A DNA stretch of 64,000 nucleotides from Acidobacteriota bacterium (GTDB taxonomy: Bacteria > Acidobacteriota > UBA890 > WLXD01): NCBI GenBank assembly GCA_965205505.1, contig CBDBHB010000009.1:1-64000 (forward strand), given 5' to 3'. The notes under the pieces are model-generated. The model saw only the letters and a program-made list of their open reading frames with translations. It was not told the DNA's origin and ran no database searches. The translations under genes and the position numbers were made by a program. This document shows positions 9,721 through 48,765 of the stretch, in pieces; position 1 is the stretch's first letter, and each line of letters begins with the position of its first letter.

Positions 9721-11613
9721 TTGTCTCCGCGCTGGCCATCGCGGCTGCCGCCACACTACGAGTACTTACGCAACATAGAGCACCAGCACCCGGAGCTCAC
9801 CGGTGGCCTGTGCGCCGTGCTGCCGCGGAAGGTGCTGGCGCGGCTGCCGAGCTTTTCGCACCCGTGGCCGGAGGTCCTCGCCGCCGAGCTGACGCCGGAG
9901 CTGGTAGCCGAAGCGCTACGCGCGCTGGTGCCGCACGTCGGCGACGACACCTCCTCGGGCTCGAGGTTCTTTCAGACGATCCGCGACGGCCGCGGCCACT
10001 GGAACAAGGAAGTGTTCTGGCACCCTGGGCTCGTGATCCTGCCGCAGCTCGCCGCGGCTCACTGGTTGCAGCAGCTGGTGCTCGGCTCCCCGTTGCAGGA
10101 TGCGCGCGGTCGCGTTCGTCACTTGGTGATCGACTACGACGGTCCACGGCGCCTCTGCGACCCGGAGACACGACACGAAGCGCTGCGCGAGATCCGCATC
10201 GCCGGCGTGCCCGTCTGGTTCGCCACGCGGCCGAGCTATAACCGCGAGCACTCGATGCACGTATACGTGCTGCTGGATCAGCCGATGCCGGCGGACGAGG
10301 CGGCCGAGCACGTTCGGCGTCTGTTGCGCACCAAGCCGGGGGCGCCGCCGGGACAGTGGTGCGAGATCCTGGTGAGGGCTTGTCGTCTGCCGGCCGGCCT
10401 CGACGCCGCCCGGCTCGATCCCGCCACCGGTGCCGAGCTCGAAGAATCGCCCGGCGTGCAGCTGCGCTCGATTCTTCAGCTGCGCGACACCTGTGACCGG
10501 CTCCGGGTGCGCAGGTGTCCAATTCGTGTCCCGAGGATGGCTCAGGACACTCGCGGATCTTTCGCCGCAGGTCCGGGTGCGGAGACCTGCCTAAGTCGGG
10601 CACCATCGCCGCTGGAGGCGATCGCAGCCGCAGCCGAGGCACGAGCCGAGCGCTACGAGCTCGCGGAAGCCGCGGGCGGTGAGCGGCCGCGCTTCGGATC
10701 CGTCGGGCCACTACCGTGGGACGGGCCGTGCGAGATCGCACAGCTGTTGCGCTCCGGATCGGTGGACCCTGGCTACCGCAATGCAACCGCCCGCGCCATC
10801 GGGCACTTCGCGCACGCCGCGGGCCTCGACCTGGACGCAACGCTCCAGTCCTTCGACGCCATCACGTTCCAGGGCGCCACGTGGGCCGAGTTACGCGGCT
10901 GGCGAGCCGACTGCACGAGATCGTACGCACGCGGCGCCAAGCTGCTGCGCAACCCCGCCGCGACCGAGGCCTCGACGCCGACGCCTGACAAGCTCCGGGA
11001 AATCGCCACAGCCGCGCTCGAGCAGCTGCCTGACGAGGTGCGCTCCCGCCTCGAGGCCGACGCGGCCGAGATCCCACACCGGGCACTGCGGCGCGCGTTC
11101 CTGCGCCTCGTCGGCTATACGCTTGCCCGGTGCCGTCAAGGGCGGCCCGATGTGCCGGCCTCGACGTTGCGCACTTTGGTCGGTACGCCGCGCTGGTGCA
11201 AACCAGCGATCGAACGCGCCGTGCTCCTCGGCTGGCTCCGGATCGAACGCGAGGCCGATCGCCTCAAGCACCGCTGCCGGCGCTTTGCAACAGGTCCTCA
11301 AGCTAGCGCTCCGGCTCCCGATCCCCCGAGCGGATGCATCATCGAGTCCCCCATGCAGCACTGGAGCATCGTTGAGTTCCCCCTGGTGCACATGAGCTTT
11401 TTGGGTACACATAATGACCCGAAGGGGGACCGGTCCGACAAGGAGTACTCCCCACACACGGTCCGAGAGGGAAAACGCCGCCGACACGCCTGCCCGGGAC
11501 AAGGCGATCGCGGGCCGCCGAGCGCCGCCCGAACAACTGCCGCGACCGCCTACCGGCGCAGGCGAGTCGACTGGTACCGCACTCGGGACGCTCGCCGCCG
11601 ACACCAAGCGTGA
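9721..11613 (+). CDS. AEP (primase-polymerase)-like replication protein with PriCT-like and C-terminal HTH-like regions; start uncertain
   Basis: HLVIDYD (hhhDxD), SMHVYVLLD (sxH), CRLP, PGYRNATARAIG (PriCT-like). Confidence 0.65.
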   Translation: MSPRWPSRLPPHYEYLRNIEHQHPELTGGLCAVLPRKVLARLPSFSHPWPEVLAAELTPELVAEALRALVPHVGDDTSSGSRFFQTIRDGRGHWNKEVFWHPGLVILPQLAAAHWLQQLVLGSPLQDARGRVRHLVIDYDGPRRLCDPETRHEALREIRIAGVPVWFATRPSYNREHSMHVYVLLDQPMPADEAAEHVRRLLRTKPGAPPGQWCEILVRACRLPAGLDAARLDPATGAELEESPGVQLRSILQLRDTCDRLRVRRCPIRVPRMAQDTRGSFAAGPGAETCLSRAPSPLEAIAAAAEARAERYELAEAAGGERPRFGSVGPLPWDGPCEIAQLLRSGSVDPGYRNATARAIGHFAHAAGLDLDATLQSFDAITFQGATWAELRGWRADCTRSYARGAKLLRNPAATEASTPTPDKLREIATAALEQLPDEVRSRLEADAAEIPHRALRRAFLRLVGYTLARCRQGRPDVPASTLRTLVGTPRWCKPAIERAVLLGWLRIEREADRLKHRCRRFATGPQASAPAPDPPSGCIIESPMQHWSIVEFPLVHMSFLGTHNDPKGDRSDKEYSPHTVREGKRRRHACPGQGDRGPPSAARTTAATAYRRRRVDWYRTRDARRRHQA

Positions 11614-12140
11614 AAGGGGTCGAGGTCCCCGAGCTGGGAGCCTACGACGTTGTAGCCCGAGGAGCTTTGGAGCCGCTGACGGTACTTGAGTACGTAGCGT
11701 AAGAGAAGGCAGGCATGGTGTTGCGTGCCGCGAAGCTCAAGGGTGGAGATGCTACGCATCGTACGCGGACCGCAGGCGCTTCGGCCTCAACGAGATACGC
11801 GCCGTGGATCGAGGTCGCCGAGAGGGAACTGCTCGGAGAGAAAACGCGGGTGACGTTCCTTGGTCCCCGCGCGAGCGGACCGAGTTCGCGCTGTACCGCT
11901 GCACCCCGGCGAGCGCGATTGCTTCGCCTCCTACGTGTGCGTACACGAGAGCGCGGTCGTGGATGCGCTGACGCAGGACAATGGCGGGGAGCTCGGCTGG
12001 CTGGCCAAGCGGGCTGCTAGAGGCCGCTGGCATCGAGGCGGTTGAGAGTCTCTCCTGATCGCCCTCGCCTGGGCGCGATCCGCTCTCGGCGTCGAGCTGC
12101 GATGGTTTGCCGCGGGCGGTGCTCGTGTTCGCGATCTCTC

Positions 12141-12815
12141 TCACCACGGTGATCGTCCCCCGCTGCCTGAACACTGGCGATCTCGCCGGCCCCGTTGCTG
12201 GTGGCGTGCTCGCCGGCCCTGTGCGTGATCGGGCCCGCCACACGCACGGCCAGGCCTCGAACTCGGCGCGCACCCTGGCGCGTCCTGGCCACTCATTGAA
12301 CTCGGCCACACTGCGCCGGCGCGCTCACGAGGCAAGCTGATGCTATTAACCGATGCCTTCGTGTGGGTCGTCATTTTTCTGATCGGCTGGATTATCTCAG
12401 CCTCTGGCGAGTAGACGATCGCGCCGGCGCTCGAGCCTATCGAGCGCCGAGCGGGGCCGCCTAGAGCTCCACCACTACCGCAACATGCGAGGGGAATCCC
12501 ATGACAGACGCACAACGGCGCGAGACCTGCGCCGACAAGGTTCAAGATTCGATGGAATCGAGGCGTGCCGATATCCGAGATCTCATCGAGGCCCACCATC
12601 GCAACTGGGACAACGACGGCTCGAGGCGCGCTCAAGTTAGCGCGGTAGCGCGATACCAAGCGCACGTACCACCACGGGGCCCGGCCATACGGTCGGGCCT
12701 TTCGTGCGTCTATGGCGTGGCCCTGATACGCCACCACGCGGCCGGCGCGCCACCATAGGCCGATCATCGGCCGCGAGTTCTGCCTCGCGTCCTGGGGCCA
12801 CCACGGCTCGCCCAC
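12141..12815 (-). CDS. Hypothetical protein of the mobile element
   Basis: 224-aa ORF with plausible composition; no recognisable motif. Confidence 0.25.
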   Translation of the reverse strand: MGEPWWPQDARQNSRPMIGLWWRAGRVVAYQGHAIDARKARPYGRAPWWYVRLVSRYRANLSAPRAVVVPVAMVGLDEISDIGTPRFHRILNLVGAGLAPLCVCHGIPLACCGSGGALGGPARRSIGSSAGAIVYSPEAEIIQPIRKMTTHTKASVNSISLPRERAGAVWPSSMSGQDAPGCAPSSRPGRACGGPDHAQGRRARHQQRGRRDRQCSGSGGRSPW

Positions 12816-12908
12816 TCCACAGGCCCGACCATCGCGCCGGCCACCTGCACGCGCTAATACGCGCGCCTAACGCACCTCGAGGCCCTAGGCGAACTCATAC
12901 CCGCCTAG

Positions 12909-12993
12909 GCGCCACCACCTGCGCCACGCGCCACCACCTGCGCCACGCGCTGCGCCACGCGCCACCACCTGCGCCACGCGCCACCACCTGCGC
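12909..12993. repeat. Tandem 19-bp repeat GCGCCACCACCTGCGCCAC (3 full copies, 2 partial); iteron-like
   Basis: Units at 12909, 12928, 12947 (12 bp), 12959 and 12978 (16 bp). Confidence 0.9.
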
Positions 12994-13338
12994 TCGAACT
13001 GGCCCCGCTGCTGCCCTGCTGGCCCCATCGCTTCGAGTGCGCCGGCGCACTGGTGGCGCAGTCGGCGCACTGGTAGCGCACCCTGGCCCCCAACCGCGCG
13101 CGCCAGCTGGCCCCCAACCACCACGCGCGCCGAACTCTCGAGCCCTAAACCGTCCGATATGGCCATGCGCTCGCGTGCTCGAGGTCGTCATCGGCCCCAA
13201 TCTGTAAACCCTATGGCCACAGTCATTTATGGGGGCCTAGCAAAGTAAACGAGGCCCCCCACGTGGATACCGCGATGTGCCCTGACATTTGTAAGCAAAG
13301 GTTCGTCGCCGGTGCCGCATCATAATATGACCAACTAA

Positions 13339-13872
13339 ATGACAATCGACCGAAACCAGCCGACCGACCCCGAAGTCATCCGCCGCATGCGGTGGACTCG
13401 CCGCTATCGCCGGTGGCGCGCCGGGATCCTCCGGAACGAGCCGTTGTGCCGATCCTGCGCCGAGAATGGCTTCACGGTCGCTGCGGAGCACATCGACCAC
13501 ATCGAGGCCGTCCACCTGGCGCCTGAGCGCTTCTGGGATCGGGCCAACATCCAGCCGTTGTGCCGGGACTGCCACGAGAACAAGCACCGCGGGAAACCCC
13601 TCACCCTCGAGCAGTTCCGTGAGCGCGAGGCCTGGCTCCGCCACCGTGGCCGATCCGCTGACCGCCCCTCGAGCGCCGCTGCCGGCGCTTTGCACCAGGT
13701 CCTCGATCTGGCGCTCCGGCTCCCGATCTCGCGCGCGAGTGCATCATCGAGTTCAGGTCAGCGACCGCATGATCGCTTCCAGCGGCCCCCGACGGAAGCG
13801 CCGCCGCCACACATGCGAGAAGACCACGCCGAGCCCGCAGAACAGGACGGAGCTTCCGACCACGAAGGTTAG
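13339..13872 (+). CDS. Phage-type HNH endonuclease (terminase-associated gp74-like); 3' end fused to unrelated DNA after about 13650
   Basis: WRAGILRNEPLCRSC..AEHIDHI..FWDRANIQPLCRDCHENKH. Confidence 0.85.
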   Translation: MTIDRNQPTDPEVIRRMRWTRRYRRWRAGILRNEPLCRSCAENGFTVAAEHIDHIEAVHLAPERFWDRANIQPLCRDCHENKHRGKPLTLEQFREREAWLRHRGRSADRPSSAAAGALHQVLDLALRLPISRASASSSSGQRPHDRFQRPPTEAPPPHMREDHAEPAEQDGASDHEG

Positions 13873-30763: not shown

Positions 30764-32136
30764 TGGGCCTCCCCCGATTTCCCGGACACCTTTGGAAGCC
30801 CGATAATGGGCTCGGAGGTGAAGCATGGGGTCACGACGGCGGTACAGTCGCGAGTTCAAGATTGAGGCAGTGAGGATGGTGACGCAGCTGGGCCATCCGG
30901 TGTCTGAGGTGGCCCGGGATCTGGGTGTTGGCCGCGGCATGTTGACCAAGTGGCGCAAACAGCTCCAGGAGCAGGGGGTCACGGCGTTTCCGGGCGCGGG
31001 GAAGATGCCCGACCAGGACCTGGACGGGCAACAGCTACGGCGGGACGTGCGGCGAGTACGGCAGGTGCGCGACATTCTAAAAAAAGCGTTGGCGATCTTC
31101 TCGGAACGCCCGCGATGAAGTACCCGATCATCAAGCAACTGTCCGGCAAGTTCCCGGTGCGGCGGTTGTGCAAGATGCTCGAGGTGTCTCACGGCGGTTA
31201 CTACGAGTGGCGAGGAAGGGGGCCGAGCCCGAGAGCGCGAGAAGATCGCCGTCTACGTGTGCAGATCAGAGCTGCATTCCGAGAGAGCCGCGACCGTTAC
31301 GGAAGTCCGCGCATCCACAAGCAACTTCGGCAACGAGGGATCCGCTGCTCTCGCAAGCGGGTAGCTCGGCTGATGCGCCAGGAAGGACTTCGAGCTCGCC
31401 AACCCCGTCGGTTCCGGGTGACAACACGGCCCACACCTGGCCGGTCAGCGGCGCCCAACGTGCTGGCACGGCGCTTCACGGTGGATGCCGTGGACAGCGT
31501 CTGGGTGGGCGACCTGACATACCTGTGGACGCAGGAAGGATGGCTATACCTGGCCGTGGTGATGGATCTGTGCTCGCGACGGATCATCGGCTGGGCGGTG
31601 AGCGAGACGATGACGGACGATTTGACGCTGGCGGTCCTGGATCAGGCCTTGGAGCAACGCCGTCCCGGTTCCGGAGTGCTCCATCACAGCGACCGCGGCA
31701 GCCAGTACAGCAGCGACGATTACCTAGACAAGCTGCGTGACCGTGGCTTCACCATCAGCATGAGCAGGAAAGGAGACTGCTGGGATAACGCGCCGATGGA
31801 GAGTTTCTTCTCTACCCTGAAGTTCCAACTCGGTGGCTGCTTCAGTTCCCGGGCGGCGGCCCGAGCCGAGTTGTTCCACTACATCGAAGTGTTCTACAAC
31901 CGGGCTCGCATGCACACCTCGATCGGAGACCAGAGTCCGGCTCAGTTCGAGGCGGCAATGCGGCGGCCAGGCCAGAGCGGCCAATCAGCTGTGGAAGCTG
32001 ACGCGCCCGTGGAAATCGACTCCCGATTTCCACCGTCGCTTGGACAACGCTCCGCGTTGCCAACAGCTCCCACAGCCGCTAATACGACTACGACAATGGA
32101 TCTTAACTAAGTGTCCGGGAAAGCGGGGCAAGGTCA
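30764..32136 (+). mobile_element. IS3-family element (orfA 30825-31118, orfB to 32110)
   Basis: 26-bp terminal IRs (21/26 match; TG...CA), A7G slippery site at 31079, DDE motifs (WVGD, HSDRGSQY, DNAPMESFF). No target duplication. Confidence 0.95.
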
Positions 32137-32735
32137 GACTGGCTTCGTAGACTGGAAGGGTTTGCTACGCGACGTGGCGGACGAACTTGGGCTAGACGTG
32201 GACACGGAATCTGATCTCGTAGCTGTGGCCCAATACCACGTCAACAAAGCTGGCGGCCGAGCCCGGCGTGACCAGTTGATCATGGACGAGTTCACCGAAG
32301 GCGCCGAACCAGGCGCGGCGCACAAGTACCTCGTTCGGCTGCCGCTCTGGACAGTTTGGACAACGAACTACGATCGGCTACTCGAGGAGGCGTATCGGAA
32401 GCTGCGGAAACGCGCCGATGTGAAAACAACACGCGCGAGCATCGCGCAAACTATGCCGCGCCGCGAAGTCGTCCTGTACAAGATGCACGGGGACGTCCAA
32501 GAGCCTGCGGAAGCAGTTCTCACGAAAGAGGACTACGAGACCTATCTGCCGAAGCGCCAGGCCTTTGTGACTACCCTTGAAGCCGACTTACTCACAAAGA
32601 CATTCCTGTTTTTGGGGTTCAGTTTCTCGGACCCCAACCTCGACTACGTGCTCGCCCGGATACGTGGCTTGCTTGGTGAACACCAGGGCGAACACTTCTG
32701 CATTCTCAAGCAGCCTGGAGACAACAAACCGGAAG
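32137..32735 (+). pseudogene. thsA: Thoeris ThsA-like SIR2 domain fragment
   Basis: DLVAVAQY, LP..T.WTTNYD, YKMHGDV..P.EAVL.K.DYE, TFLFLGFSFSDPNLDY.L.R match the ThsA SIR2 domain as I recall it. Both ends are missing. Confidence 0.75.
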
Positions 32736-32749
32736 GCGGAACTGCACTG

Positions 32750-32925
32750 GCGCTACGTCATTGGGCAAGATCGAGATCGAGAGGCTCCTCGCCGAACGCG
32801 CCATCCAACTCGGAGATAGATTTACCCTGAAGCGGTTCATGGACGAGTTTGCCACTGTCGGTGTGATCCCGGTATCGATGGTGCGCTGGGAGTTGACTGG
32901 GTACGACAACGAGGTGCCGCGTTAG
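32750..32925 (+). pseudogene. DUF885-like C-terminal fragment
   Basis: YVIG-KIEIERLLAERAIQLGDRFTLKRFMDEF...G.IPVSMVRWELTG. Confidence 0.55.
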
Positions 32926-36014: not shown

Positions 36015-39000
36015 TCACATCGAGCCGAATCTTGTGGCGACGTACTTGTCGGCATCCTCCTGGGCGAGTCGCACCGTACCGGGGCCGCTGCGGACGTAGA
36101 GATCTCCTTCAACGGCCTTCTCGAGACCCTTCCATCGCAGATACACCGGCTCGAGGCTCCGCTGGCAGCTCACGAGGCAGACGGTCTTGCCCTCGACGAT
36201 CTGCGCCTTGGGATCGATGCAGGTTCCGGCGCGGTCACCGAGGCCATTGCGCACGACCTGGGCCAAGTGCCGCATGAACTTATCGTCGCTGTCGAGGCGG
36301 TCGTGCTCGATGCCGACAACCTTGCGGTCGTCGTCCACGCCGATCAGCAGGTCGCCGCCCTCGGTGTTGAGGAACGCGGCGATACTCTTGAGCGCCGCGT
36401 GGGTGACGCGCTTGTCGTCCTTGCGGTCTTTTCTCAGGTTCCAGCGCAGGCTCGACTTGAACTCGAGCGTCTTGGACTCCCGGAGCTTGAGCAGTTCCTC
36501 TGCTCGTCGGTGCCGCTGGATGTAGTCGTCAAACAGGAAGTTCTTGAGCGCCCGGCCGAAGTCCGCATCGTCGGTGATGCGCTTGTACAGCTCGAAGTTG
36601 GTCTCGACGAACTCCTGGAACTTGTCCTCAACCTTGGGGTCGAAGGTCAGCCGCACGTTCTCGCGCGTGTTCACCCGGGCGCTGGCCTCCAGCCCGTCGT
36701 CCTCTTCCAGGGCCAACCGGATGCGCTCGAGTGCGACGCGGTGCTCAGGGCCGAGCTCTGTGCCGAAGCGCTCGTTGAGCGCCTCGATGATGCGCGAGAG
36801 CGCCTCCAGTTCCTGCGCGCCGGCCCCACTGTGCGGCTTGCTGCCGGCCGGGTCGAGCGGCCAGACCTGCCGCTCCAGCGCGATTGAGCCCTGGCTCGTC
36901 TGCTGGATGCGGAAGGACTCCATGTCGATGTTCTGCTGCACCTCGAGAGGTAACTCCTCACGGCTGGCCGGCAGCAGGCGCCTGAGGTGTCGGGCAAAGA
37001 CGTAGAGCTTCTCCAGGTCGAGGTCGGCGAATCTCAGCACCTGGGACAGGAACGCGTACAGGCGCGCGTAGTCGCTGAGGTCGCCACGGAAGTCGCCTCC
37101 CTCCTCGGGCCCAAGCTCCCCGAAGCGCTGACGCGCCGGCTCCAGCGCCGCGTACAGTCTGTCCTGGGTGCCCTTGGGGTCGAAGTACACCCGCCCGAAG
37201 GCCTCCACGTCGTCGGCCGCGAACACGCCGTAGTTGAGCAGCCTGTCCTGGACTTCGTACAGGAGGTTGGGGTCGGTCTCCTCGGAAAGCAGGGTGGTCT
37301 CGTAGTACGGCTCGAAGGCTTTCCGGATCTCCTCGGCCTCGTTGGCGAAGTCGAGCACCATCGTGCCCTTCTTGCCGGGGTGGGTGCGGTTCAGGCGGGA
37401 CAGCGTCTGGACCGCGTTCACCCCACCGAGCTTCTTGTCCACGTACATCGTGTGCAGCAATGGCTGATCGAATCCGGTCTGGAACTTGCTGGCGACCACC
37501 AGGAAGCGGTACTGAGGCTTGCCGAACTCGTCTGCCGTCTGCCGCTCGCCGATCACTCGCTCCTGCCCGGCGGAGTTCATGCCGGACTCCGTGTAGGAGG
37601 CGCCCTTGTCCTTCACCGTTCCGGAAAAAGCGACGAGCGCCCTGTACGGATGGCCCTTATCGTCCAGATACTGATCCAGAGCGAGCTTGGCCCGCACCGC
37701 GTGCAGGCGTGATCGCGTCACGATCATCGCCTTGGCCCGCCCGCGGATCTCACGTGCGACCTGCGCGGCGAAATGCTCCACGCAGATGGCGATCTTGTCG
37801 CGGATGGCATGCGGGTGCAGCTCGACGAAGGACTTGAGCAGGTACTCCGCCTGACTCTTGTCGTACCGCGGGTCCTGCTCGATCTTTTTCAGCAGGCGCC
37901 AGTAGGCCTTGTAGGTGGTGTAGTTGGCGAGCACGTCGAGGATGAACCTCTCCTGGATCGCCTGGCGCATGCTGTAAAGATGGAAGGGCTCGAACTTCCC
38001 GTCCGGCCGCTTGTGGCCGAACAGCTCCAGCGTCTTGGGCTTCGGGGTCGCCGTGAAGGCGAACGTCGAGAGGTTCGGCTGCCGCCCGCGGCTTTGGATC
38101 TCGTCGAGGACCCGGTTGTCGATCTCCTCTTCGGGGGTCTCCGCGCCCACTTCCTCCTGTTCGGCCTGCTCCAGAGTCCCTGCTCTGAGCACCGCCTTGA
38201 GGCTCTTGGTGCTCTCGCCAGACTGCGAAGAATGGGCCTCGTCCACGATGACTCCGAAGCGCTGACCGGGGAGCTGGCCGATCTGCTCGGCGATCACCGG
38301 GAACTTCTGCAGCGTGGTGACGATGATCGTCCGGCCAGCCTCGAGAGCCTCACGCAGCTGGCGGGAGGTCTGGTCGATGTTTTCCACCACGCCGAGGGTC
38401 TGCTCGAACTGCCGGATGGTGCGCTGCAACTGGCGATCGAGCACCCGCCGATCGGTCACCACGATGACCGAGTCGAACACACGCCGGTCCTCTCGGTCAT
38501 GCAGCACCGAGAGCTGGTGGGCGAGCCAGGCGATCGTGAAGCTCTTGCCGCTGCCCGCAGAGTGCTGGATCAGATAGCGCTCGCCGGTGCCGTGCTCTCG
38601 CGCATGGCGCACAAGGCGGCGCACGCAGTCCAGCTGCTGGTAGCGCGGGAAGATCAGGAAGCGCTTGCCGGTCTTGCGTCCGGCATCGTCCTCCTCCTGC
38701 ACCTCGTGAATGAACTGACGGAGCAGGTCCAGGACACTGTCCCGGGCCCAGATCTGCTCCCACAGGTAGTCGGTCGGAAAGCCCGGACGGGTGGGCGGGA
38801 CCGGTGAATTCCCTGCGCCGCCGAAGCGCCCTTGGTTGAAGGGTAGGAACCGGGTCCCGGGCCCGGACAGCTGCGTCGTCACGAACACCAGCTCCGGGTC
38901 CACGGCGAAGTGGGCAAGGCAGCGCCCGTAGGAGAGGAGCGGCTCCCGGGGGTCACGGTTGTGCCGGTACTGCTGGATGGCGTCCTGCACGTCCTGGCCG

Positions 39001-39551
39001 TTGAGCGGGTTCTTGAGCTCGGCCGTGAAGATGGGGATGCCGTTCAAAAACAGCGCGAGATCGAGGCTCTCCTCGCTCTGCTCGCTGAAGCGAAGCTGGC
39101 GCACCACGGCAAAGAGGTTGGCCGCGTGAAGGCGCTGCAGCTGTTCGTTGAGCCCGCTCGCAGGCCGGAAGTAAGCGAGCCGGAACCTGCAGCCCGAGTC
39201 TTTGACGCCATTGCGGAGTACGTCGAGTGCCCCCCGCCGGCCGATCTCGCGCGACAGCCGGCTCAGGAAGCGCACCTTCACGTGAGCGCCGTGGTGCTGC
39301 TTGAGCTTGTCCCACTCCTTGGGCTGGGTGGCCAGGAGGAAGTCGACGACATCGGACGGAATCAGGCAGAGGCCGCGGTCGTAGTCCTCCGGCCGACGCT
39401 TGCGGTAGCCGCCCGGCACCGGCTCATCGTCGTACTCGGGCGCTGACTCTCCCACGGCCGTCGTATCGTCCGGGCGCGCGCCGATCCCGTTCCGCAGCAG
39501 CGCGTACTCGATCGCCTCCTCGAAGGCCTGCTCGGAGACCTCGGGGCTCAT
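36015..39551 (-). CDS. hsdR: Type I restriction subunit R fused to a C-terminal Schlafen/AlbA_2 domain
   Basis: D..LFLNGIP..AELKN nuclease, QHSAGSGKS, DEAH, FTATP, QTLSRLNR; C-terminal ESKTLEFKSS..SIAAFLNTEGGDLLIGVDD..YVRSG..T. Confidence 0.95.
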   Translation of the reverse strand: MSPEVSEQAFEEAIEYALLRNGIGARPDDTTAVGESAPEYDDEPVPGGYRKRRPEDYDRGLCLIPSDVVDFLLATQPKEWDKLKQHHGAHVKVRFLSRLSREIGRRGALDVLRNGVKDSGCRFRLAYFRPASGLNEQLQRLHAANLFAVVRQLRFSEQSEESLDLALFLNGIPIFTAELKNPLNGQDVQDAIQQYRHNRDPREPLLSYGRCLAHFAVDPELVFVTTQLSGPGTRFLPFNQGRFGGAGNSPVPPTRPGFPTDYLWEQIWARDSVLDLLRQFIHEVQEEDDAGRKTGKRFLIFPRYQQLDCVRRLVRHAREHGTGERYLIQHSAGSGKSFTIAWLAHQLSVLHDREDRRVFDSVIVVTDRRVLDRQLQRTIRQFEQTLGVVENIDQTSRQLREALEAGRTIIVTTLQKFPVIAEQIGQLPGQRFGVIVDEAHSSQSGESTKSLKAVLRAGTLEQAEQEEVGAETPEEEIDNRVLDEIQSRGRQPNLSTFAFTATPKPKTLELFGHKRPDGKFEPFHLYSMRQAIQERFILDVLANYTTYKAYWRLLKKIEQDPRYDKSQAEYLLKSFVELHPHAIRDKIAICVEHFAAQVAREIRGRAKAMIVTRSRLHAVRAKLALDQYLDDKGHPYRALVAFSGTVKDKGASYTESGMNSAGQERVIGERQTADEFGKPQYRFLVVASKFQTGFDQPLLHTMYVDKKLGGVNAVQTLSRLNRTHPGKKGTMVLDFANEAEEIRKAFEPYYETTLLSEETDPNLLYEVQDRLLNYGVFAADDVEAFGRVYFDPKGTQDRLYAALEPARQRFGELGPEEGGDFRGDLSDYARLYAFLSQVLRFADLDLEKLYVFARHLRRLLPASREELPLEVQQNIDMESFRIQQTSQGSIALERQVWPLDPAGSKPHSGAGAQELEALSRIIEALNERFGTELGPEHRVALERIRLALEEDDGLEASARVNTRENVRLTFDPKVEDKFQEFVETNFELYKRITDDADFGRALKNFLFDDYIQRHRRAEELLKLRESKTLEFKSSLRWNLRKDRKDDKRVTHAALKSIAAFLNTEGGDLLIGVDDDRKVVGIEHDRLDSDDKFMRHLAQVVRNGLGDRAGTCIDPKAQIVEGKTVCLVSCQRSLEPVYLRWKGLEKAVEGDLYVRSGPGTVRLAQEDADKYVATRFGSM

Positions 39552-40894
39552 GCCGCTTGTTCCCGGACGTCGATCTTGCCGGTGACCGCTGCCGAGATCA
39601 GCGCGGTACGGAATTCTCTGAGGTGGCCGATGGCTTGGAGAATTTTGGCGATGAGGGCGTCGATGCTCGTCGTCTCGCGGTCGAGGAAATCAGCGATGGC
39701 ATGTTGCTCTTGGCGGGGCGGGGCCACCACTAGCATCCCTGCAAGGTGGGAAGGCCCGAAGTGCTGGATCGTGCTTCCGCTGCGTGCCAGGTCCACCTGC
39801 GTCGCAAGCACGTCGGAGAGCAGCATCCATCGGGCGAAGTTCTTCAATACTCTTTCGGCTCTTGGGCGGATGATGATAATGCCGGTATAGGGGATCGCAC
39901 CAGCAGTCTCCTCGTCGACCTCAGCGCAGAATCCTGTCGACGCGCTACCGCTGATTAGCAAATCTCCTGACCTGACTTGGAAGTGGCTCCACCTTTTCCA
40001 AACGGTCTCGGGTGACAAGTAATTGCTACCATCGAGAGTGGCCCAACGTCCACGAATGCCGGAGATACGGAGGAGTGGAACCCCTTCGGCCAGGAAGTCG
40101 GCCGCCATGATCCCGGGACCCTCGAGGTAGTCGATGGCTCGCTTGAACGGGACCACCTCCCAATGCGCAGGGATCTCACCCAGCCACTCGACACCGGAAT
40201 CCTTCATGGGGACGTTCGGGTCCAGACCACGGGTGACGGCACGGGTGATCAGGGCGGTGCGTTTCTCCTGAAGTAGCTCGACCAACCGCTCCTTGTCCGC
40301 CACCAACCCATCGATCTTCGCTGTCTCGCGGTCAAGGAAAGCGGCGATGGCCCGCTGCTCTGACAAGTCCAGGACAGGGAGTGGAACTTGAGCGAAGTTC
40401 TCGTATCTGAGCTCCTGCCCGTCTCTCACGTAGTTGGATGTACTTTGGAGCGCTTGGACATAGGCACTGGACTTAAACAAATGCGCAAAGAGAGGCGCAT
40501 GCACCGGCCCTCTCGGCTCTAGCATCACGTACGCCGAGCTTATGTTCCCTCGATAATGAGAGAGTTCCAGCCCGCCCTGAAAGCTACGCATGCTGATCAC
40601 GAAGTCACCTGGCTCGACGTGCTTCAGGATCTCCGGCCGGTGAACGACCTGGACGACGCGACGCCCTTCCCGAGCCATGAACTCATCCTGTGGGATCACG
40701 CCGTAGCGCTGAGATGCCGTTAACTGCTGCTGTCCGCCCCTCGCCTTGTCCCTGCGAAGTCTGAAGAGTGCTTTGCTGCGAACCACTTCCCAGTGCGACG
40801 GAATCTCCCCCAGCCAGGGCTCGCCACTAACCCGGTACTCAGAGTACGGGCGGCGCCGGCGCCGGAACCCGGCCCTGGCACTGGCCTCGGTCAC
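39548..40894 (-). CDS. hsdS: Type I RM specificity subunit
   Basis: Two WLGEIP.HWEVV repeats, two EQ.AIA.FLDRET repeats, ALISAAVTGKIDV; GTGA overlap with the hsdM stop. Confidence 0.95.
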   Translation of the reverse strand: MTEASARAGFRRRRRPYSEYRVSGEPWLGEIPSHWEVVRSKALFRLRRDKARGGQQQLTASQRYGVIPQDEFMAREGRRVVQVVHRPEILKHVEPGDFVISMRSFQGGLELSHYRGNISSAYVMLEPRGPVHAPLFAHLFKSSAYVQALQSTSNYVRDGQELRYENFAQVPLPVLDLSEQRAIAAFLDRETAKIDGLVADKERLVELLQEKRTALITRAVTRGLDPNVPMKDSGVEWLGEIPAHWEVVPFKRAIDYLEGPGIMAADFLAEGVPLLRISGIRGRWATLDGSNYLSPETVWKRWSHFQVRSGDLLISGSASTGFCAEVDEETAGAIPYTGIIIIRPRAERVLKNFARWMLLSDVLATQVDLARSGSTIQHFGPSHLAGMLVVAPPRQEQHAIADFLDRETTSIDALIAKILQAIGHLREFRTALISAAVTGKIDVREQAA

Positions 40895-41798
40895 CCCGCT
40901 ACCTCCCGAAGCATCGCCACGATGTCCTTCTCGATGGTGCGGATGTCGGCCTGTATCTGCTCCAGCGGCCGCGGTGGGCGGTACTCGTAGAAGTAGCGGT
41001 TGAAGTTGATTTCGTAGCCCACGATCCCGACCTCTCCGTCCCGCACATCCCGGCATTTCGTGTCGATCCAGGCGTCGGGAACGTGCGGCTTCACCTCCCG
41101 CTCGAAGGACGACTCAACATCCTCCAGGAGGGGCACGCTCTCCGTGTCGCGGAGCCCTGGATCGGGCTCGGGGCTACCCTCCCGGTCCCTGCAGACCTCC
41201 GCCTCCTCGTTGCGCTCGGACAACGCGGAGAAAATGGCCTTCTTGATAGGCGCGGAGAGCTTGAGCTTCGCCTCTCGAGCCGTCTGGGAAAGCTCGGCCT
41301 CGAAGTCCTCCCGATCCAGGAACAGCTTGCCCGGCAGATTCTTCAGCAGGGTTCGGATCTCGGCCTGCTGCTTCCGGCCCGCCTCCTCGTCCTTCGCCTT
41401 CGCTTCGCCCTTCTTGCGCGACACCGCCAGGTTGACGAAAGCGCGCTCCTCTTCGAGCCGTGCGATCCGCTCGGGTCTGGGCTGGAAGTCGAGCTTCAGC
41501 GGTCGCTCCACCGTGATCTTGCGGAAGCCGAAGTGCGTACTCGGGTAGATGCGGCTGACGACAACCTCGCACTCCTCGCCATCCTGGACGACCTTGCGGG
41601 TTGCGCCGTCCTCGAACTCTGCCAGCAGCTGCAGGATCTCCTCCTTTCGCTCGACCGGAACCTCGCGACGCTTCGCACCCAGGCTCTTGCGCAGAGGGAC
41701 CCAGAACGAGGTGGCGTCGATGAGCTGCACCCTGCCAGCCCGCTCGGGCCGTTTCCGGTTCGTGAGCACCCAGACGTAGGTTGCGATGCCCGTGTTGT
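40891..41798 (-). pseudogene. hsdM: Type I RM methyltransferase, only the C-terminal part remains (cut by IS3)
   Basis: NTGIATYVWVLTNRK, LRKSLG.KR, LRDTESVPL, REVKPHVPDAWID, GYEINFNRYFY; SAM-binding and NPPY/F motifs absent. Confidence 0.92.
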
Positions 41799-43069
41799 TG
41801 ACCTGCCCCCCAATAATCGGGCCAGTTTGAGAGTTAGGAATTGAGGCTCTCAGGAAGGCTCGGGAAGGGGGAGAAATGGCCCGGAAGCGATACACGGTAG
41901 AGCAGATCATCGCCAAGCTCAGGGAGGCAGAGATCGAGCTGGCGCAAGGAGCCAAGACGCCGGAAGCGTGCCGGAAGCTGGGCATCAGCGAGAACACGTA
42001 GTACCGGTGGCGTAAGGAGTACGGCGGCCTGAGGGTGGATCAGGCACGGCGACTCAAGGAGCTGGAGCGCGAGAACGGGCGGCTCAAGAAGCTGCTGGCG
42101 GAAACGATGCTCGACAACGCCATCCTCAAAGAGGTGTCGTCGGGAAACTTCTGAGCCCGGCGCGCCGGAGCCGGGCAGTGCGACACGCACAGCAGTCGCA
42201 GGGGGTGTCGGAGAGGCGAGCCTGCCGAGTGCTGGGCCAGGTGCGCTCGACGCAGCAATATCGGCCCAAGGCGCCTGGAGACGAAACACCGCTGGTGAAG
42301 CGAATGACCGAACTGGCGACGCAGTACGGACGCTACGGGTACCGTCGGATCACGGCTCTGATGGAACGCGAAGGGTGGCGGGTGAACCACAAGAGGATCG
42401 AACGGTTATGGCGTCGTGAAGGACTGAAGGTACCGAAAAAGCAGCCCAAGCGCGGACGCTTGTGGCTCAACGATGGATCGTGCGTGCGGCTGAGGCCGGA
42501 AAGGAAAGATCACGTGTGGGCCTATGACTTCGTGCACGAACGAACTCACGACGGGCGAGCGGTTCGTCTGCTGACGATCGTGGATGAGTACACCAGGGAG
42601 TGCTTGGCCATCGATGTGGCGCGCAGGCTCAACTCCGAGAACGTGTTGGATCGACTCGCTGAGCTGTTCGTGAACCGTGGTGTTTCCGACCACATCCGCT
42701 CCGACAACGGACCGGAGTTCACTTCTCGGGTAGTGCGTGGCTGGCTCGAGCGGGTCGGTGTGAAGACGTTGTTCATCGAGCCCGGCTCGCCGTGGGAAAA
42801 CGGCTATGTGGAGAGCTTCAACGGCAAGCTACGCGACGAGCTGCTGAACGGGGAGATCTTCTACACGCTCAAGGAGGCGCAGAGCTTGGTGCAAGCCTGG
42901 CGCCGCAAATACAACCAGGTGCGGCCACACAGCTCGTTGGGCTATCGGCCGCCTGCACCGAAAGCGACGTTGTTAAAGCCGGCTACGCTCCGCTCCGCCG
43001 GCTGCAACAACCTCTTGCCAGCACCGATTCTATGAGTTACGAAGTGGCCTCAACACTTGGGGCAGGTCA
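41799..43069 (+). mobile_element. IS3-family element (IS407-like; orfA 41876-42154, orfB to 43035)
   Basis: IRs TGACCTGCCCC / GGGGCAGGTCA; WAYDF, RSDNGPEF, WENGYVESFNGKLRDE. No target duplication. Confidence 0.95.
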
Positions 43070-43454: not shown

Positions 43455-44725
43455 TGACCTGCCCCCCTTTTCTGGTCCACTGGAAGTGAGAGTCTCGGAC
43501 CGAATGACCCCACCCCGAAATCAGTACCAGTCAGAGGTTTAGGATTCGGTGTTCCGAAGCCTCCGGTTGCCAGCCCCTGGCGAACTCCGTAGGAGTTCGA
43601 TCGTTCAGTGAGCTGTGTGGTCTGTGGGTATTGTAATCAAGCCTCCAAGCCTCCAGTTTTCGGCGCGCGTCATCGATCGAGAAGAACAGGTTGGCGTTGA
43701 GGCATTCGTCGCGAAGCCGTCCGTTGAAACTCTCGATGAACGCATTCTCCACGGGCTTTCCCGGCCGAATGAACTCCAACTGCACGCCTCTTCGGTACGC
43801 CCAGGAGTCCATCGCCTGGGAGTAGAATTCTGAGCCATTGTCGACGGTGATGACCCGTGGCAACGGCCCGGCAAACGACAGCCGCTCGAGTGCTCCAGCC
43901 ACCGCCTTGCCGGTCATCGACACGCCCGGCTCAAGTAACGGACATTCACGGCTAAACTGATCGACCACCGTCAGCACCCGAAACGGCCGGCCACTCTCGA
44001 GCCGATCGGTCACGAAGTCCATGCTCCAGCGCTCGTTGGGCCGCTCTGCGGGCGGCAGCACAAGCCGTATGTGACTCGCCCGCTTGCGCCGTCGCTTTTT
44101 GGTCCGTACCTCCAGCCCCTCCTCTCGATAGATCCGATACACGCGCTTCTGGTTCACTACCCATCCCTCGCGGCGTAGCAACACGCACAACCTCCGATAC
44201 CCGAACCGCGGACGCGCCGCGGCGAGCTCGCCAAGACGACGCCGCAGCACGGGGTCGTCCGTCCTTGTGCTCTGATACCGATGGCTGGTGCGCGACAACT
44301 CGATCAGCCGACACGCTCGACGCTCACTGACACGGAACCCGTCCTGCAGGTACCGCACCACCTCGCGCTTGCGCGCCGGCTTCACACCTTTTTTGACAGC
44401 ACCTCCTGGAGCATGTGCTTGTCCAAGCTCAGATCTGCCACCAGCTGCTTCAACTTCCGGTTCTCATGGCGGAGTTGTCGTAGCTCCCGAAGTTCGGCCA
44501 CGCCCATCCCGGCGAACTTGCGGCGCCACGTGTAGAACGTCTGCTCGCTGACGCCCAGCTTGCGACACACCTCCTTGATCGGCGTGCCCGCCTCAGCCTG
44601 CCGCAGCGCGTAGGCGATCTGCTCGTCCGTGTACCTCTTCCGCTTCATCTGTCCTCCTGCTTGGAGGACGACGGTACACCGATTTCCTAAACATCAACCT
44701 GGCACCGTTTTCGGGGTTTGGGTCA
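43455..44725 (-). mobile_element. IS3-family element (IS407-like; orfA 44382-44648, orfB 43531-44385)
   Basis: TGACC...GGTCA termini, A6G slip site, [26 protein letters not shown]. Confidence 0.95.
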
Positions 44726-44948
44726 CACTCGCTGCGGTCAGTTACGTCCGTTAATAAGTCGGACATAACCCTAGTGACTCGGTTGTACAATCTCTTCCAT
44801 GGTCGACCATCGTCCATTCACCCGCACGGTGCTCACCGTCGCCGGCATTGACCAAGAGACACGGTCCCCCGGTGATGCCGTTCGGGTAGGCGGACGCAAC
44901 AGATCTACAGCCGAATCTGCCGGCGTGAGGACAGCATCGTGTCGGAGC

Positions 44949-47900
44949 ATGTCCAGAAACGATGCCTGTCTCTCTGGACCCCACAGTAAGCGTCGAGTTG
45001 CCCTCGCCGTCACGCTGTCAGTGCTGCTGTCGGGCATCGTGGCGGCGCGGGTCCACGCCCAGTCCGCATGGGACGGGACGGTGGAGGTGTCCCCGAGCAC
45101 GTTGACCGTCAAGGAAGGAGAATCCGTCAGCTACCGCGTGAGACTGACCAAGCCGCCGACAGGGGACGCCGACAGCAATGTGTGGTGGATCATGGTGCAG
45201 GCTGATGGCGCGAGGCGCGCCGACGGCATCTACAAGAGTATCCATTGGGTGCCGTCGATCGGCCGAGAGTTCAATCCGGACAGCCGGTCGGGTTGCGCAG
45301 GGTGCTGGGACCAGTGGCAGGACATCCGTATATATGCGGATCAGGATGACGATGCAGAGGATCTGTGGGTAACCTTCACCCACGAAGTGTGGGATCACAA
45401 CGCTGACTGCCCGGTGCATGGGGTGGGCGAGGTGACGGTACACGTCATCGATGACGACGGCGGAGGCACAACGGATGACAACCCGGCAGTCACGGTGTCC
45501 TACCGTCCGACGACCTACACGATGGTCGAGGGCGAGACGGTACCGGTAACGGTGGTCCTGAGCGCGGACCCGGAGCGCGAAGTGGTCATCCCGATTGCGG
45601 TTGAGCCCGGTGGCACCGCGACGACCGCAGACTATTCAGGGGTGCCCACGAGCGTGACCTTCGCATCCGGTGAGACGACCAAGGCCTTCACCGTCATGAC
45701 CACCGAGGACACCGCGGATGAGCCCAACGAGACCGTCAACCTGGGTTTCGGCTCGCTGCCCACTGGCGTGAGCGAGGGAAGCTCCCCGGATGCGGTCGTC
45801 ACCATCATCGACGACGACGGCGGAGGCGACGGGGAACGACGGCGGCGGCGGAGGCGACGGGAACGACGGCGGCGGCGGAGGCGACGGGAACGACGGCGGC
45901 GGCGGAGGCGACGGGAACGACGGCGGCGGAGGCGACGGGAACGACGACGGCGGCGGCGGCGACGGGAACGACGACACCGAGGACGGCGGGGCGAACCGGC
46001 CGCCGGTATTCGCCCGGAGCTATGCGTTCGACCTGCTGGAGCACCGGTCCGGGCGCGAGGTGCCGGTGTTCCTCGGAACGGTCCGGGCGCGAGACCCGGA
46101 CGGTGACCGGATTCGCTACGCCCTGTCCGCGGGCGACCGCGAGCGCTTCACCGTCTCTACGGCGAGCGGCGCGGTGAGCTACGTCGGCGGGGGCGAGGAG
46201 TTCGAGTCGGGTCCGTCGCGCTACGAGTTGCAGGTGACGGCGGAGGATGGGGCTCTCCGTGCGAGGGCCGATGTGGTCGTCCGGGTGGTGGACGTGCCGG
46301 AGGCGCCGGATGCCGGCGACGACGACGCGGAGACGCCGGAAGACACGCCGACGGTAATCGACGTGCTGTCGAACGACCGCGACCCGGACGGCGACCGGCT
46401 GCGGATTGCCTCCGTGGGCGCCGCGGAGCACGGCACGGCGACGCTGGCGTCGGGCGGGATTCGGTATGCGCCGGACCTGAACTGGCATGGCACGGATCGG
46501 TTCGACTACACGGTGGCCGACGCGGGCGGGCTGACGTCGACGGGTACGGTGACGGTGCGGGTGACGCCGGTGAACGACCCGCCCGAGGCGGTCGACGACG
46601 AGGCGGAGACGCTCGAGGACGTGCCGGCGGTGGTGGACGTGCTGGCCAACGACACCGACGTCGACGGGGACCGGTTGCGGGTGGTGGCGGTGGGCTCGGC
46701 GGGGCACGGCGCCACGGCGATAGCGTCCCGCAGGGTGCGCTACTCACCGGATCCGAACTGGTATGGGACGGACCGCTTCCGGTACACGATTGCGGACCCG
46801 GAGGGGTTGACGGCGACGGCGATGGTGACGGTGACCGTGCTGCCGGTCAACGACCCGCCGGAGGCCGTGGGGGTCATCCCGGACCAAGCGCTCGAGGAGG
46901 GCGGGGCGCCGGGGACGGTGGACCTGGCGCCGTACTTCACCGACGTCGACGGGGACGCGCTGACCTACGCCGCGGTGTCGTCGGACGAGACGGCGGTGAC
47001 GGTGACGGTTGCCGGCGCGACGGTGACGCTGTCGGCGGTGGTGACGGGCACGGCGACGGTAACGGTAACGGCCAGCGACGTCGAGGGGCTGACGGCGACG
47101 CAGACCTTCAGCGTGCAGGTGGGCGACCGGTTGGTGCGAGCGGTGATGACCGACGCGCTGGCGGCGCTGGGCCGGGGGCACCTGTCGAGTGCGCGGTCGA
47201 CGATCGGCCGGCACCTGGAGATGGGCGGCGGCGCGGCGACGCGGTTGATGGTCGGAGGCCAGCTCCTTTCGCCGGACGCCTGGGACCGGATCGGCGCGGG
47301 GGGACTGGAGCATACCCACGAGTTGCTGGTCCGGGCAGCGCAGTGGCGGCAGCGCGTTTCGGGAATGGACCTGGTCGGGACGTCGGCGGAGCCGCGGCTG
47401 GGGCGCTCGGGGTCGGCGGGGCTGCTGGGCGGCGAGTCCGGCGGGGACTGGAACCGGCTGCTGCAGGGGACGGACGTGCTTCTGTCGTTCGGGGGGCAGG
47501 ACGGTCCGCCGGGACCGGCGGGCGAGCGTGTCGGCGGGCCGCGGTGGACGGTGTGGGGGCAGGGTGACCTGCAGACGTTCCGAGGTGCGGACACCGAGGG
47601 CGACAGTTATGAGGGCGACCTGCGGACCGGGTATCTGGGGCTGGATGCCCGGCTGGGCGAGAAGTGGCTGGTGGGTGCGGCGTTGGCGCGCAGCGGCGGC
47701 CGCGGCGACTGGCAGGTGGGCTCGTCGAGCGGCCGCCTGACGACCGGGCTGACGGTGGTGCATCCGTACCTGCGGTGGGGTGACCGGGACACGTCGGTGT
47801 GGGCGTTGGCGGGCATCGGGTGGGGGACGGCGGAGAACGTGCGGACGCTGACCGGCCGGCGGGAGACGAGCCCGTTGCGCCTGGGCCTGGGCCTGGTGGA

Positions 47901-48765
47901 GGGTCGCCGTCGCGTAGCGACGACAGGCCGGTGGCTGGCGGTGGATCTGCGGGGGGAGGCGTCGTGGGCGCGGCTGCGGACCGGCGACGGGGAGGAGACG
48001 GTCGACGGGCTGGCGGCGGAGGTGCGGCGGGTGCGGACCGGCGTCGAGGTGACGCTGGCGCTGGACGGCCCGGGCGGTCTGGAGGTGGCGCCGTTCGGCG
48101 CGGTGAGCACGCGGCACGACAGTGGTGCGGGCCAGACCGGCGTGGGGCTGGAACTGGCGGGCGGTGTGCGGCTGACGGGCGGCCGCGTGCGCATCGAGGC
48201 GCACGGCCGGACCCTGGCGCTGCACACGGCGACAGACTACGAGGAGAAGGGAGTGAGCGTGACGGCGAGCGTCGGCGCCGGGCAGTACGAGCCGGGGTTG
48301 AGCGTGTCGCTACGCCCCCGGTGGGGAGCCCCGGGCTACGGAGCCGAGGCGCTGTGGCAGGACCAGCTGCAGAGCTACACGTACGGGTACGGGGCGGAGC
48401 GAGACGACGTCGCGGTCGACGCGCGGGTCAGCTACGGCCTGCGCCTGCCCGGTGGGCGGCTGCTCACGTCGTTCGGAGGCTACGGGGAGATGGGCACGCG
48501 GCGGCGCATGCAGGTGGGTGCGAACCTGGGCACGCTGGGCCTCTTCGGCGGCGACCTCGACAGCCCGCTCCAGTTCGAGTTCGTGGGCGAGCGCCATGTC
48601 CGGCCGCGAGGCGGAGCGGACCACCGCCTCACGCTGTTCGGAATCGTCAACCTGGGCGCGCGATCCAGCGCGTGCCGGGGCGGCACCTGCGCGTCGGCGA
48701 CAGCTCACCGACAGGGTCGGCGTGCGCCGCGGGCGTGGCGCCAGGCCGGGCACGAGCCCCGCTGA
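44949..48765 (+). CDS. Large adhesin/autotransporter (Calx-beta-like, cadherin, tandem Ig repeats, beta-barrel), split by one frameshift near 45831
   Basis: TF.SGET..V....D..DEP.ETV.L; ARDPDGD..Y; NDPPEAVDD..DVLANDTDVDGD repeats; C-terminal barrel (WGQGD, GLDARLG). Confidence 0.85.
45816..45975 (+). repeat. 27-bp tandem repeat GACGGCGGCGGCGGAGGCGACGGGAAC encoding a DGGGGGDGN linker
   Basis: Three exact units at 45838-45918 plus variant units on either side. Confidence 0.9.

Follow-up and report, generated by a model that had tools for sequence, protein, structure and literature searches.

A Schlafen/AlbA_2 domain at the C-terminus of the type I restriction subunit HsdR: a predicted RNase in an Acidobacteriota genome and in a widespread protein family

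The question raised by one hsdR gene of an Acidobacteriota genome is what a domain of the Schlafen/AlbA_2 family does behind the complete enzymatic core of a type I restriction subunit. The gene lies in a stretch of 64,000 nucleotides (nt; contig CBDBHB010000009.1 of assembly GCA_965205505.1), which we refer to as the window. A preliminary description of this DNA had noted that the open reading frame (ORF) runs on for about 160 amino acids (aa) past a complete HsdR, had assigned this extension (hereafter the tail) to the AlbA_2/Schlafen family, and had proposed that it is a guard nuclease built into the restriction enzyme. We consider it likely, at a probability of roughly 0.6, that the Schlafen tail of HsdR is an RNase, probably a tRNase, that gives the restriction complex a second effector, as judged from sequence, structural modelling and analogy with characterized Schlafens. 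The domain family and its link with restriction-modification (R-M) are already known; HsdR as a fusion partner is unnamed in the main texts that we searched.

Identity, fold and predicted active site of the tail

The 1178-aa protein is encoded by a single unbroken ORF (Table 1) and is, by its domain content and operon, a genuine type I HsdR. Pfam finds HSDR_N at residues 143–227 (E 2.8e-14), superfamily 2 (SF2) motor domains (SWI2_SNF2/ResIII/DEAD) at residues 302–508 and a T1R_D3-like domain at residues 678–729, and PADLOC classes HsdR as a type I restriction endonuclease (REase_I, E 2.2e-33). The PD-(D/E)xK residues of the nuclease are present (D164...E178-x-K180), as are the GSGKS (333–337, Walker A) and DEAH (437–440) motifs of the motor; the QxxxY motif of the nuclease domain was not clearly located in the HsdR sequence. 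The window HsdR shares its nuclease, SF2 motor and helical C-terminus with classical HsdR proteins (EcoR124I, EcoKI) and with tail-less relatives of its own clade, from which it differs by the Schlafen domain of 160 residues that follows the core. These tail-less relatives (12 of the 80 loci fetched, see below) are 59–68% identical over the core (residues 1 to ~1015), and their ends fall 1 to 10 residues from query position 1010–1019. Because natural relatives stop there, HsdR is complete before the tail begins, as the preliminary description had held. The linker between the last core helix and the Schlafen domain comprises only ~8–10 residues.

The tail matches SLFN_AlbA_2 (PF04326) with an E value of 4e-18 and 66.5 bits (gathering cut-off 25.3; Pfam), the match spanning profile positions 1–116 of 118, and it contains the strings ESKTLEFK (1025–1032), AAFLNTEGG (1058–1066), IGVDDD (1070–1075) and YVRSGP (1152–1157). 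An AlphaFold2 (AF2) model of HsdR residues 1000–1178, made from an alignment of 97 sequences with 35–79% identity to the tail, has a mean predicted local distance difference test score (pLDDT) of 96.1 and a predicted template modelling score (pTM) of 0.91. When this model was compared with the Protein Data Bank (PDB) using Foldseek, 25 matches at E <= 0.001 were obtained. The best of these were all AlbA_2/Schlafen folds, i.e., DIP2311 (3lmm), the N-domain of SLFN13 (5yd0) and the tRNase/DNA-binding domain of SAMD9 (9o0d, 7ksp), and further top matches were SLFN14, SLFN11, SLFN12, SLFN5 and 2kyy; the Foldseek probability was 1.00 for 3lmm, 5yd0, 9o0d, 7ksp, SLFN14, SLFN11 and SLFN12. A sequence-profile search of PDB chains aligned the AAFLNT-GG...GV-DD segment alone to SLFN12, SLFN13, SLFN11, SLFN14 and SLFN5, with weak E values of 0.002–0.5. 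A lead from the ESM Atlas (0.91) is a fragment cluster that combines PF04326 with T1R_D3. Both the profile match and the predicted structure identify the HsdR tail as a single-lobe Schlafen/AlbA_2 nuclease fold, and the assignment in the preliminary description was therefore correct.

The ESKTLEFK string fits the E-x4-E-x-K motif (E1025, E1030, K1032), which is catalytic in SLFN11 and has the form E-x4-(E/D)-x-K in bacterial Schlafens (PMC13056530). The E15A/D20A variant of the bacterial RorSlfn5 is dead (PMC13056530), E17, D22 and K24 of CbCash hold the scissile phosphate together with Mg2+, and mammalian Schlafens that are not nucleases do not have the active-site residues (PMC13462974). We counted these residues in 62 HsdR tails, i.e., those of 61 loci and that of the window, leaving out an unrelated AlbA_2 ORF of locus L035. 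E1025, E1030 and K1032 are each retained in 61 of the 62 and so is D1074, while D1084, D1090 and R1154 are retained in all. Among the 97 more divergent relatives E1025 is found in 92, E1030 in 95, K1032 in 93, D1074 in 95, and D1084 and R1154 in all 97; some of the five divergent exceptions are fragments that begin after the motif. Loss of the catalytic residues among homologs had been named in advance as a finding that would refute the proposal, and the counts do not refute it.

The preliminary description had also counted the Asp of the GVDD segment (D1074) as part of the catalytic layout. The third acidic residue of SLFN13 is D248 (PMC5862951). A HMMER alignment places D1074-D1075 opposite E-D of the IGLNED segment of SLFN12. 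The counterpart of D248 in SLFN11 is D252, and it is plausible, though not proven, that D1074 is the counterpart of both; the E-x4-E-x-K part of the proposed layout agrees with the known motif, whereas for the Asp its near-invariance stands and its role is plausible. E1064, within the NT(E/D)GG segment, was considered as the third catalytic acid and rejected, since its column varies (D in 31, E in 28 and other residues in 38 of the 97 relatives) vs. D1074 in 95. Prediction of a homodimer from two copies of the tail, with the same 97-sequence alignment, scored 0.00 and gives no verdict either way.

Occurrence, conservation and history of the fusion

All of the 120 homologs listed (81–96% identity, among at least 8000 candidates) contain PF04326. 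A scan of species genomes gave at least 554 relatives among 585 candidate stretches, and for the best 80 of these the loci were fetched: the tail is present in 61 and absent in 12, while three are cut by a contig end and four are otherwise truncated. Titles of the database records name Acidobacteriota, Gemmatimonadota, Gammaproteobacteria, Actinomycetota, Nitrospirota, Planctomycetota, Chloroflexota, Spirochaetota and Cyanobium. In 401 genomes of the phylum of the window, matches to the tail at E <= 1e-20 occurred in 28, of which 16 genomes have it in a frame of at least 1184 aa. Six of 23 tail hits of at least 71% identity in this sample sit in frames of at most 574 aa, and for G094 at least the hit is close to where a contig begins. 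The survey of such fusions called for in the preliminary description thus yields 61 of the 80 best loci and, in HsdR-length frames, 16 of 401 genomes of the phylum. By these sequence comparisons the HsdR-Schlafen fusion is a large, horizontally spread family and is not special to the window locus.

In 47 tail-bearing loci with at least 7 kb of upstream sequence the hsdM context could be judged. A full 703-aa hsdM lies upstream on the same strand in 36 of them, in nine it is split or cut by the edge, and in two there is none. The 703-aa HsdM was considered as a partner feature linked to the tail and rejected, as tail-less relatives have a long HsdM too. The intervals between hsdM and hsdR of the relatives often hold cargo, with AbiEi/AbiEii, GmrSD and Fic among the 10 ORFs scanned of 179 listed. 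Loci with such cargo are L003, L007, L018, L019, L020, L021 and L035, which carry AbiEi/AbiEii pairs, GmrSD or Fic/DOC, and in L035 AbiEii is fused to HsdS. In the closest locus, L001, a Hypoth_Ymh gene (PF09509) lies upstream and GmrSD_N downstream; PF09509 has been counted among the families of the HEPN superfamily (PMC3710099).

Mean pairwise identity over 600 sampled pairs of 62 full-length proteins is 0.767 for the Schlafen domain and 0.777 for both the motor and the nuclease; the C-terminal helical region reaches 0.672 and the N-terminus 0.668. As the identity of the Schlafen domain is about that of motor and nuclease, the tail is conserved as strictly as the enzymatic core and is under family-wide purifying selection.

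A tree of the core (FastTree, midpoint root, supports not inspected) places the tail-bearing proteins in one clade with ten tail-less proteins as its sister, and a tail-less pair (L061, L068) is nested within the tail clade. A distant relative, P0166 (1329 aa), is 46% identical end to end and has the Schlafen tail followed by a LexA-like Peptidase_S24 domain (residues 1189–1316). The tail of this distant protein and the nested tail-less pair indicate that the fusion is old and that the tail has probably been lost at least once. The architecture of P0166 itself hints at control or release of the tail that is linked to DNA damage.

The nearest relatives of the tail outside HsdR (~36–49% identity) are proteins of 385–451 aa, including P0169, P0170, P0183 and P0185, in which the Schlafen domain is also C-terminal; their N-terminal domain of ~260 aa has no Pfam match, and by profile search it resembles Atu1473 and proteins of the ATP12 type (2r6i, E 5e-7). 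Another lead from the ESM Atlas (0.83) is a cluster of 52 members with PF04326 and PF11867 (T1RH-like_C), which is possibly an independent Schlafen fusion in another HsdR family, although it is a lead only.

Proposed function and alternative explanations

The near-invariance of E-x4-E-x-K and of the Asp residues is the pattern of an active site and speaks for a catalytic RNase. In 2026 prokaryotic Schlafens, of which 55 architectures (pSlfn1-55) were described, were shown to be tRNases that act in defence against phages (Perez Taboada et al., Nat Microbiol 2026, PMC13056530). RorSlfn5 and CbCash both depend on E-x4-(E/D)-x-K and cleave tRNA once a trigger has activated them (PMC13056530; PMC13462974). 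Bacterial single-lobe Schlafens act as dimers or filaments (PMC13462974; bioRxiv 10.64898/2026.05.29.728809), and dimerization of the single-lobe domain rebuilds the two-lobed mammalian site (bioRxiv 10.64898/2026.05.29.728809). In the mechanism that we propose, the M2S-R machinery would sense unmethylated DNA, HsdR would translocate along and cut the DNA, and the tail, as a metal-dependent RNase and probably a tRNase, would arrest translation. Its trigger may be the meeting of two HsdR tails when translocating complexes stall or collide, which we infer from the short linker and from the fact that bacterial Schlafens with a single lobe must form dimers or higher oligomers to be active.

The closest parallels come from the recent literature. 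As in HsdR, a single-lobe Slfn with E-x4-(E/D)-x-K is joined to a larger partner in the pSlfn proteins RorSlfn5 (Ig-like-Slfn) and EcoSlfn7 (DUF262-Slfn); their partner module is taken to be the sensor, the contexts are those of defence, and tRNA cleavage was shown for RorSlfn5 (PMC13056530). In the window protein, by contrast, the Slfn domain forms the C-terminus, and its partner, HsdR, is a complete DNA-targeting effector and the motor of an enzyme with three subunits. Weickert et al. (Nat Commun 2026, PMC13462974) described fusions of R-M methyltransferases to Schlafen domains (cluster 3) and Schlafen genes beside R-M genes (clusters 4 and 7). The E-D-K/Mg2+ center of their Cash (CRISPR-associated Schlafen) proteins, which cuts tRNA loops and is activated by oligomerization, resembles that predicted for the HsdR tail, but the partner in these clusters is a methyltransferase or a separate ATPase protein and the activator is cyclic tetra-adenylate (cA4) via Csx15 (PMC13462974). 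In the SLFN-pAgo (prokaryotic Argonaute) or ‘Schlatpase’ systems a Schlafen effector likewise sits on a DNA-sensing defence machine, one variant being on type I HsdS; ‘Schlatpase’ includes a GHKL ATPase, on HsdS or pAgo, whereas the window has a bare Schlafen on HsdR (bioRxiv 10.64898/2026.05.29.728809). Schlafen RNases have also been described as backup effectors in bacteriophage exclusion (BREX) loci (PMC12839542). An HsdR-Schlafen fusion is not named in the main texts of PMC13056530, PMC13462974 and bioRxiv 10.64898/2026.05.29.728809 (‘HsdR’ has no occurrence), although their supplementary architecture tables may list it, and in the literature searched for ‘Schlafen’ and ‘HsdR’ the terms co-occurred in unrelated contexts in the texts checked.

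Several observations weigh against a catalytic RNase that acts as second effector. One tail, that of L023, has A/A/T at the E/E/K positions while the remaining domain is conserved, so that a non-catalytic role may exist; this locus (10001–13543) belongs to a metagenome-assembled genome of the Nitrospiraceae, represents a natural ‘dead’ variant of the motif, and its hsdM also appears to be split. With 207.9 bits the window HsdR lies below the cut-off of 284.55 of the NCBIfam model TIGR00348 hsdR (E 2.8e-61, covering residues 143–751); it is nevertheless, by sequence, a clear relative of that family, although under its curated subfamily threshold. The trigger by collision or dimerization is purely inferential, and a measurement of RNA cleavage, toxicity or defence for any HsdR-Slfn was not found in the literature searched. 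Finally, both operons of the family in the window genome carry lesions in hsdM or hsdS, so that nothing can be said on activity in this genome.

If the proposed RNase function is taken one step further, HsdR would be a two-tier immune machine in one polypeptide, in which recognition of unmethylated DNA and the stalling or collision that licenses DNA cleavage also join two tails on their short tethers into a tRNase site, so that every restriction event would be coupled to a burst of translation arrest. We regard this extension as tentative and on balance improbable. Such a coupling, if true, would let restriction withstand phages that are faster than the cutting of their DNA or that mend it. 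Type I R-M is regarded as purely DNA-targeting, non-abortive immunity, and if thousands of these systems had a working tRNase on HsdR, restriction and abortive-type translation arrest would be wired into one enzyme. Human SLFN11, in which a DNA-sensing helicase module controls a Schlafen tRNase, would then have a direct counterpart in bacteria, and deletion of the tail or E-to-A mutants would offer a simple genetic handle on the coupling of first- and second-line defence. For the window genome the value is lower, its operon being broken.

Of the other explanations, one is that the tail is a non-catalytic, AlbA-like nucleic-acid-binding module, which would hold DNA or RNA or sense structures without cutting RNA. 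Some database records are indeed titled ‘putative DNA binding domain-containing protein’, the AlbA_2 domain of SAMD9 was crystallized with DNA (7ksp), entries of SLFN5 are described as DNA/RNA-binding, and L023 has retained the domain despite its altered motif. However, 61 of 62 tails and 92–97 of the 97 divergent relatives have retained the motif and the Asp residues, which makes a module that only binds unlikely.

The preliminary description preferred another role, with PrrC as its model. PrrC provides, with EcoprrI, a tRNA-directed second line of defence that is tied to a type I restriction enzyme; it is a separate protein with an ABC-type (ATP-binding cassette) ATPase and a nuclease fold unrelated to Schlafen. 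The HsdR tail would likewise tie a tRNA-directed second line to a type I enzyme, but as a fused domain, and as a guard it would be latent in the assembled M2S-R complex and be freed when Ocr, ArdA or Stp-like proteins disturb that complex. The C-terminal helical region of EcoR124I HsdR mediates assembly with the methylase, and the tail directly follows the corresponding region, which would suit such a guard. The PrrC precedent is cited in the text of PMC13056530, and the abortive-infection cargo often found in the relatives' operons (AbiEi/AbiEii, Fic, GmrSD) implies that second-line defence is habitual in these islands. On the other hand, Pfam finds no ABC ATPase or HEPN match in HsdR, which thus has no sequence relation to PrrC, and no PrrC-like domain was found in HsdR, HsdS or the hsdM remnant using Pfam, NCBIfam and PADLOC. 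No partner feature co-varies with the tail, the 703-aa HsdM also occurring with tail-less relatives. Moreover, two intact hsdR-Slfn genes persist in the window genome, one beside a truncated hsdM and the other in an operon whose hsdM is frameshifted and whose hsdS contains a stop codon, whereas a toxic RNase released by loss of M or S should be counter-selected; this argument is weak, as the genes may be silent, and a search for RNA runs containing the locus listed none. The guard gains no support here and is weakly disfavored; we rate it about as unlikely as the binding module.

The window operon and other type I genes of the genome

The genes follow the order hsdM-hsdS-hsdR with overlapping stop and start codons (Table 1). 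The hsdS gene is intact and shares 4-nt overlaps with the stop of hsdM and the start of hsdR; no embedded gene was found in the window operon, in which M, S and R are contiguous. As described previously, hsdM is destroyed. When compared with the 703-aa HsdM of L001 (HsdM_N and N6_Mtase domains), the remnant, matched at 40894–41799, corresponds to residues 402–703 only. It covers positions 391–660 of 661 of the PADLOC MTase_I profile and abuts an insertion sequence (IS), and the end at position 41798 given in the preliminary description was right to 1 nt.

Table 1. Features of the type I operon and the adjoining insertion sequences in the window (positions in nt).
Feature	Position	Strand	Details
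hsdR	36015..39551	-	1178 aa; PD-(D/E)xK nuclease, SF2 motor, C-terminal helical region, Schlafen tail
Schlafen/AlbA_2 domain	36069..36479	-	residues 1025–1161; Pfam PF04326, genome search, AF2, Foldseek
E1025-x4-E1030-x-K1032 (ESKTLEFK)	36456..36479	-	predicted metal-dependent RNase center; motif according to PMC13056530, PMC13462974
End of HsdR core and linker	36483..36554	-	helix with KNFLFDDY (1003–1010); tail-less relatives end here
hsdS	39548..40894	-	~448 aa; GTG start at 40894; PADLOC Specificity_I, E 2e-112 over ORF residues 70–501
hsdM 3' remnant	40891..41799	-	residues ~402–703 of 703; HsdM_N and most of N6_Mtase missing
IS3-family element	41799..43069	+	1271 bp; transposase orfB 42178–43035; ends the hsdM remnant
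Second IS3-family element	43505..44725	-	orfA 44382–44648, orfB 43531–44385; at least 15 near-identical genome copies

The first IS element has at least 10 copies of 99–100% identity in the genome, and an IS query of 3.4 kb gave 75 matches; the window genome is IS-ridden. The missing 5' half of hsdM was not found next to the IS pair. The IS has cost hsdM its first ~400 codons together with anything upstream of them, so that this operon very probably no longer works as a restriction system.

A twin hsdR lies on another contig of the same genome (C7:168323-171853), with 99.2% DNA identity over 3722 nt and a protein identical to the window HsdR over residues 1–1177. The operon of this twin spans G000:C7:164886-171853 (L097 6887–13860). 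Its hsdS is unlike that of the window except for the last ~160 nt and a conserved stretch of 196 nt, and since the hsdS sequences differ, the specificity of the twin system is probably different. That only hsdR is nearly identical points to gene conversion, or to a recent exchange of the R gene between two systems of different specificity. The twin hsdM is near full-length with a 1-nt insertion in a T run (the frameshift mentioned above) and an in-frame stop interrupts the twin hsdS; both may be genuine lesions or errors of sequencing. A third hsdM remnant (G000:C7:712473-713360) joins residues 1–219 to 626–703 and lies ~480 bp from an IS copy. The HsdR of a third type I system (G000:C9:1660496-1667326) is tail-less (44% identity, 1011-aa frame), and IS copies lie both within this system and next to it. 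An intact partner set for HsdR-Slfn is not visible in the window genome assembly, which is 96% complete.

That the window locus is a dead remnant, i.e., a duplicated, IS-truncated hsdS-hsdR pair nearing loss whose tail has no function in the organism, would agree with the IS-cut hsdM, the IS load, the near-identical twin, the third remnant, the interrupted third system and the short frames among the tail hits of the phylum, but it is the least probable of these explanations, as window hsdR and hsdS are full-length and without stops, the identity with the twin protein makes any decay recent at most, and such a reading concerns the locus and not the function of the family.

Beside the R-M remnant, at 30950–32830, a 239-aa ORF with a SIR2_2 domain (E 1e-31), possibly a truncated SIR2-type defence gene, comes immediately after an IS3-type transposase (rve, HTH_21). 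On the other side, the 991-aa product of 45790–48765 has Big_9 and cadherin-like repeats and is encoded in a GC-rich region (GC content 0.736 at 46001–48000), and a frame overlapping it (44799–46106) has long E/R-rich repeats at its end.

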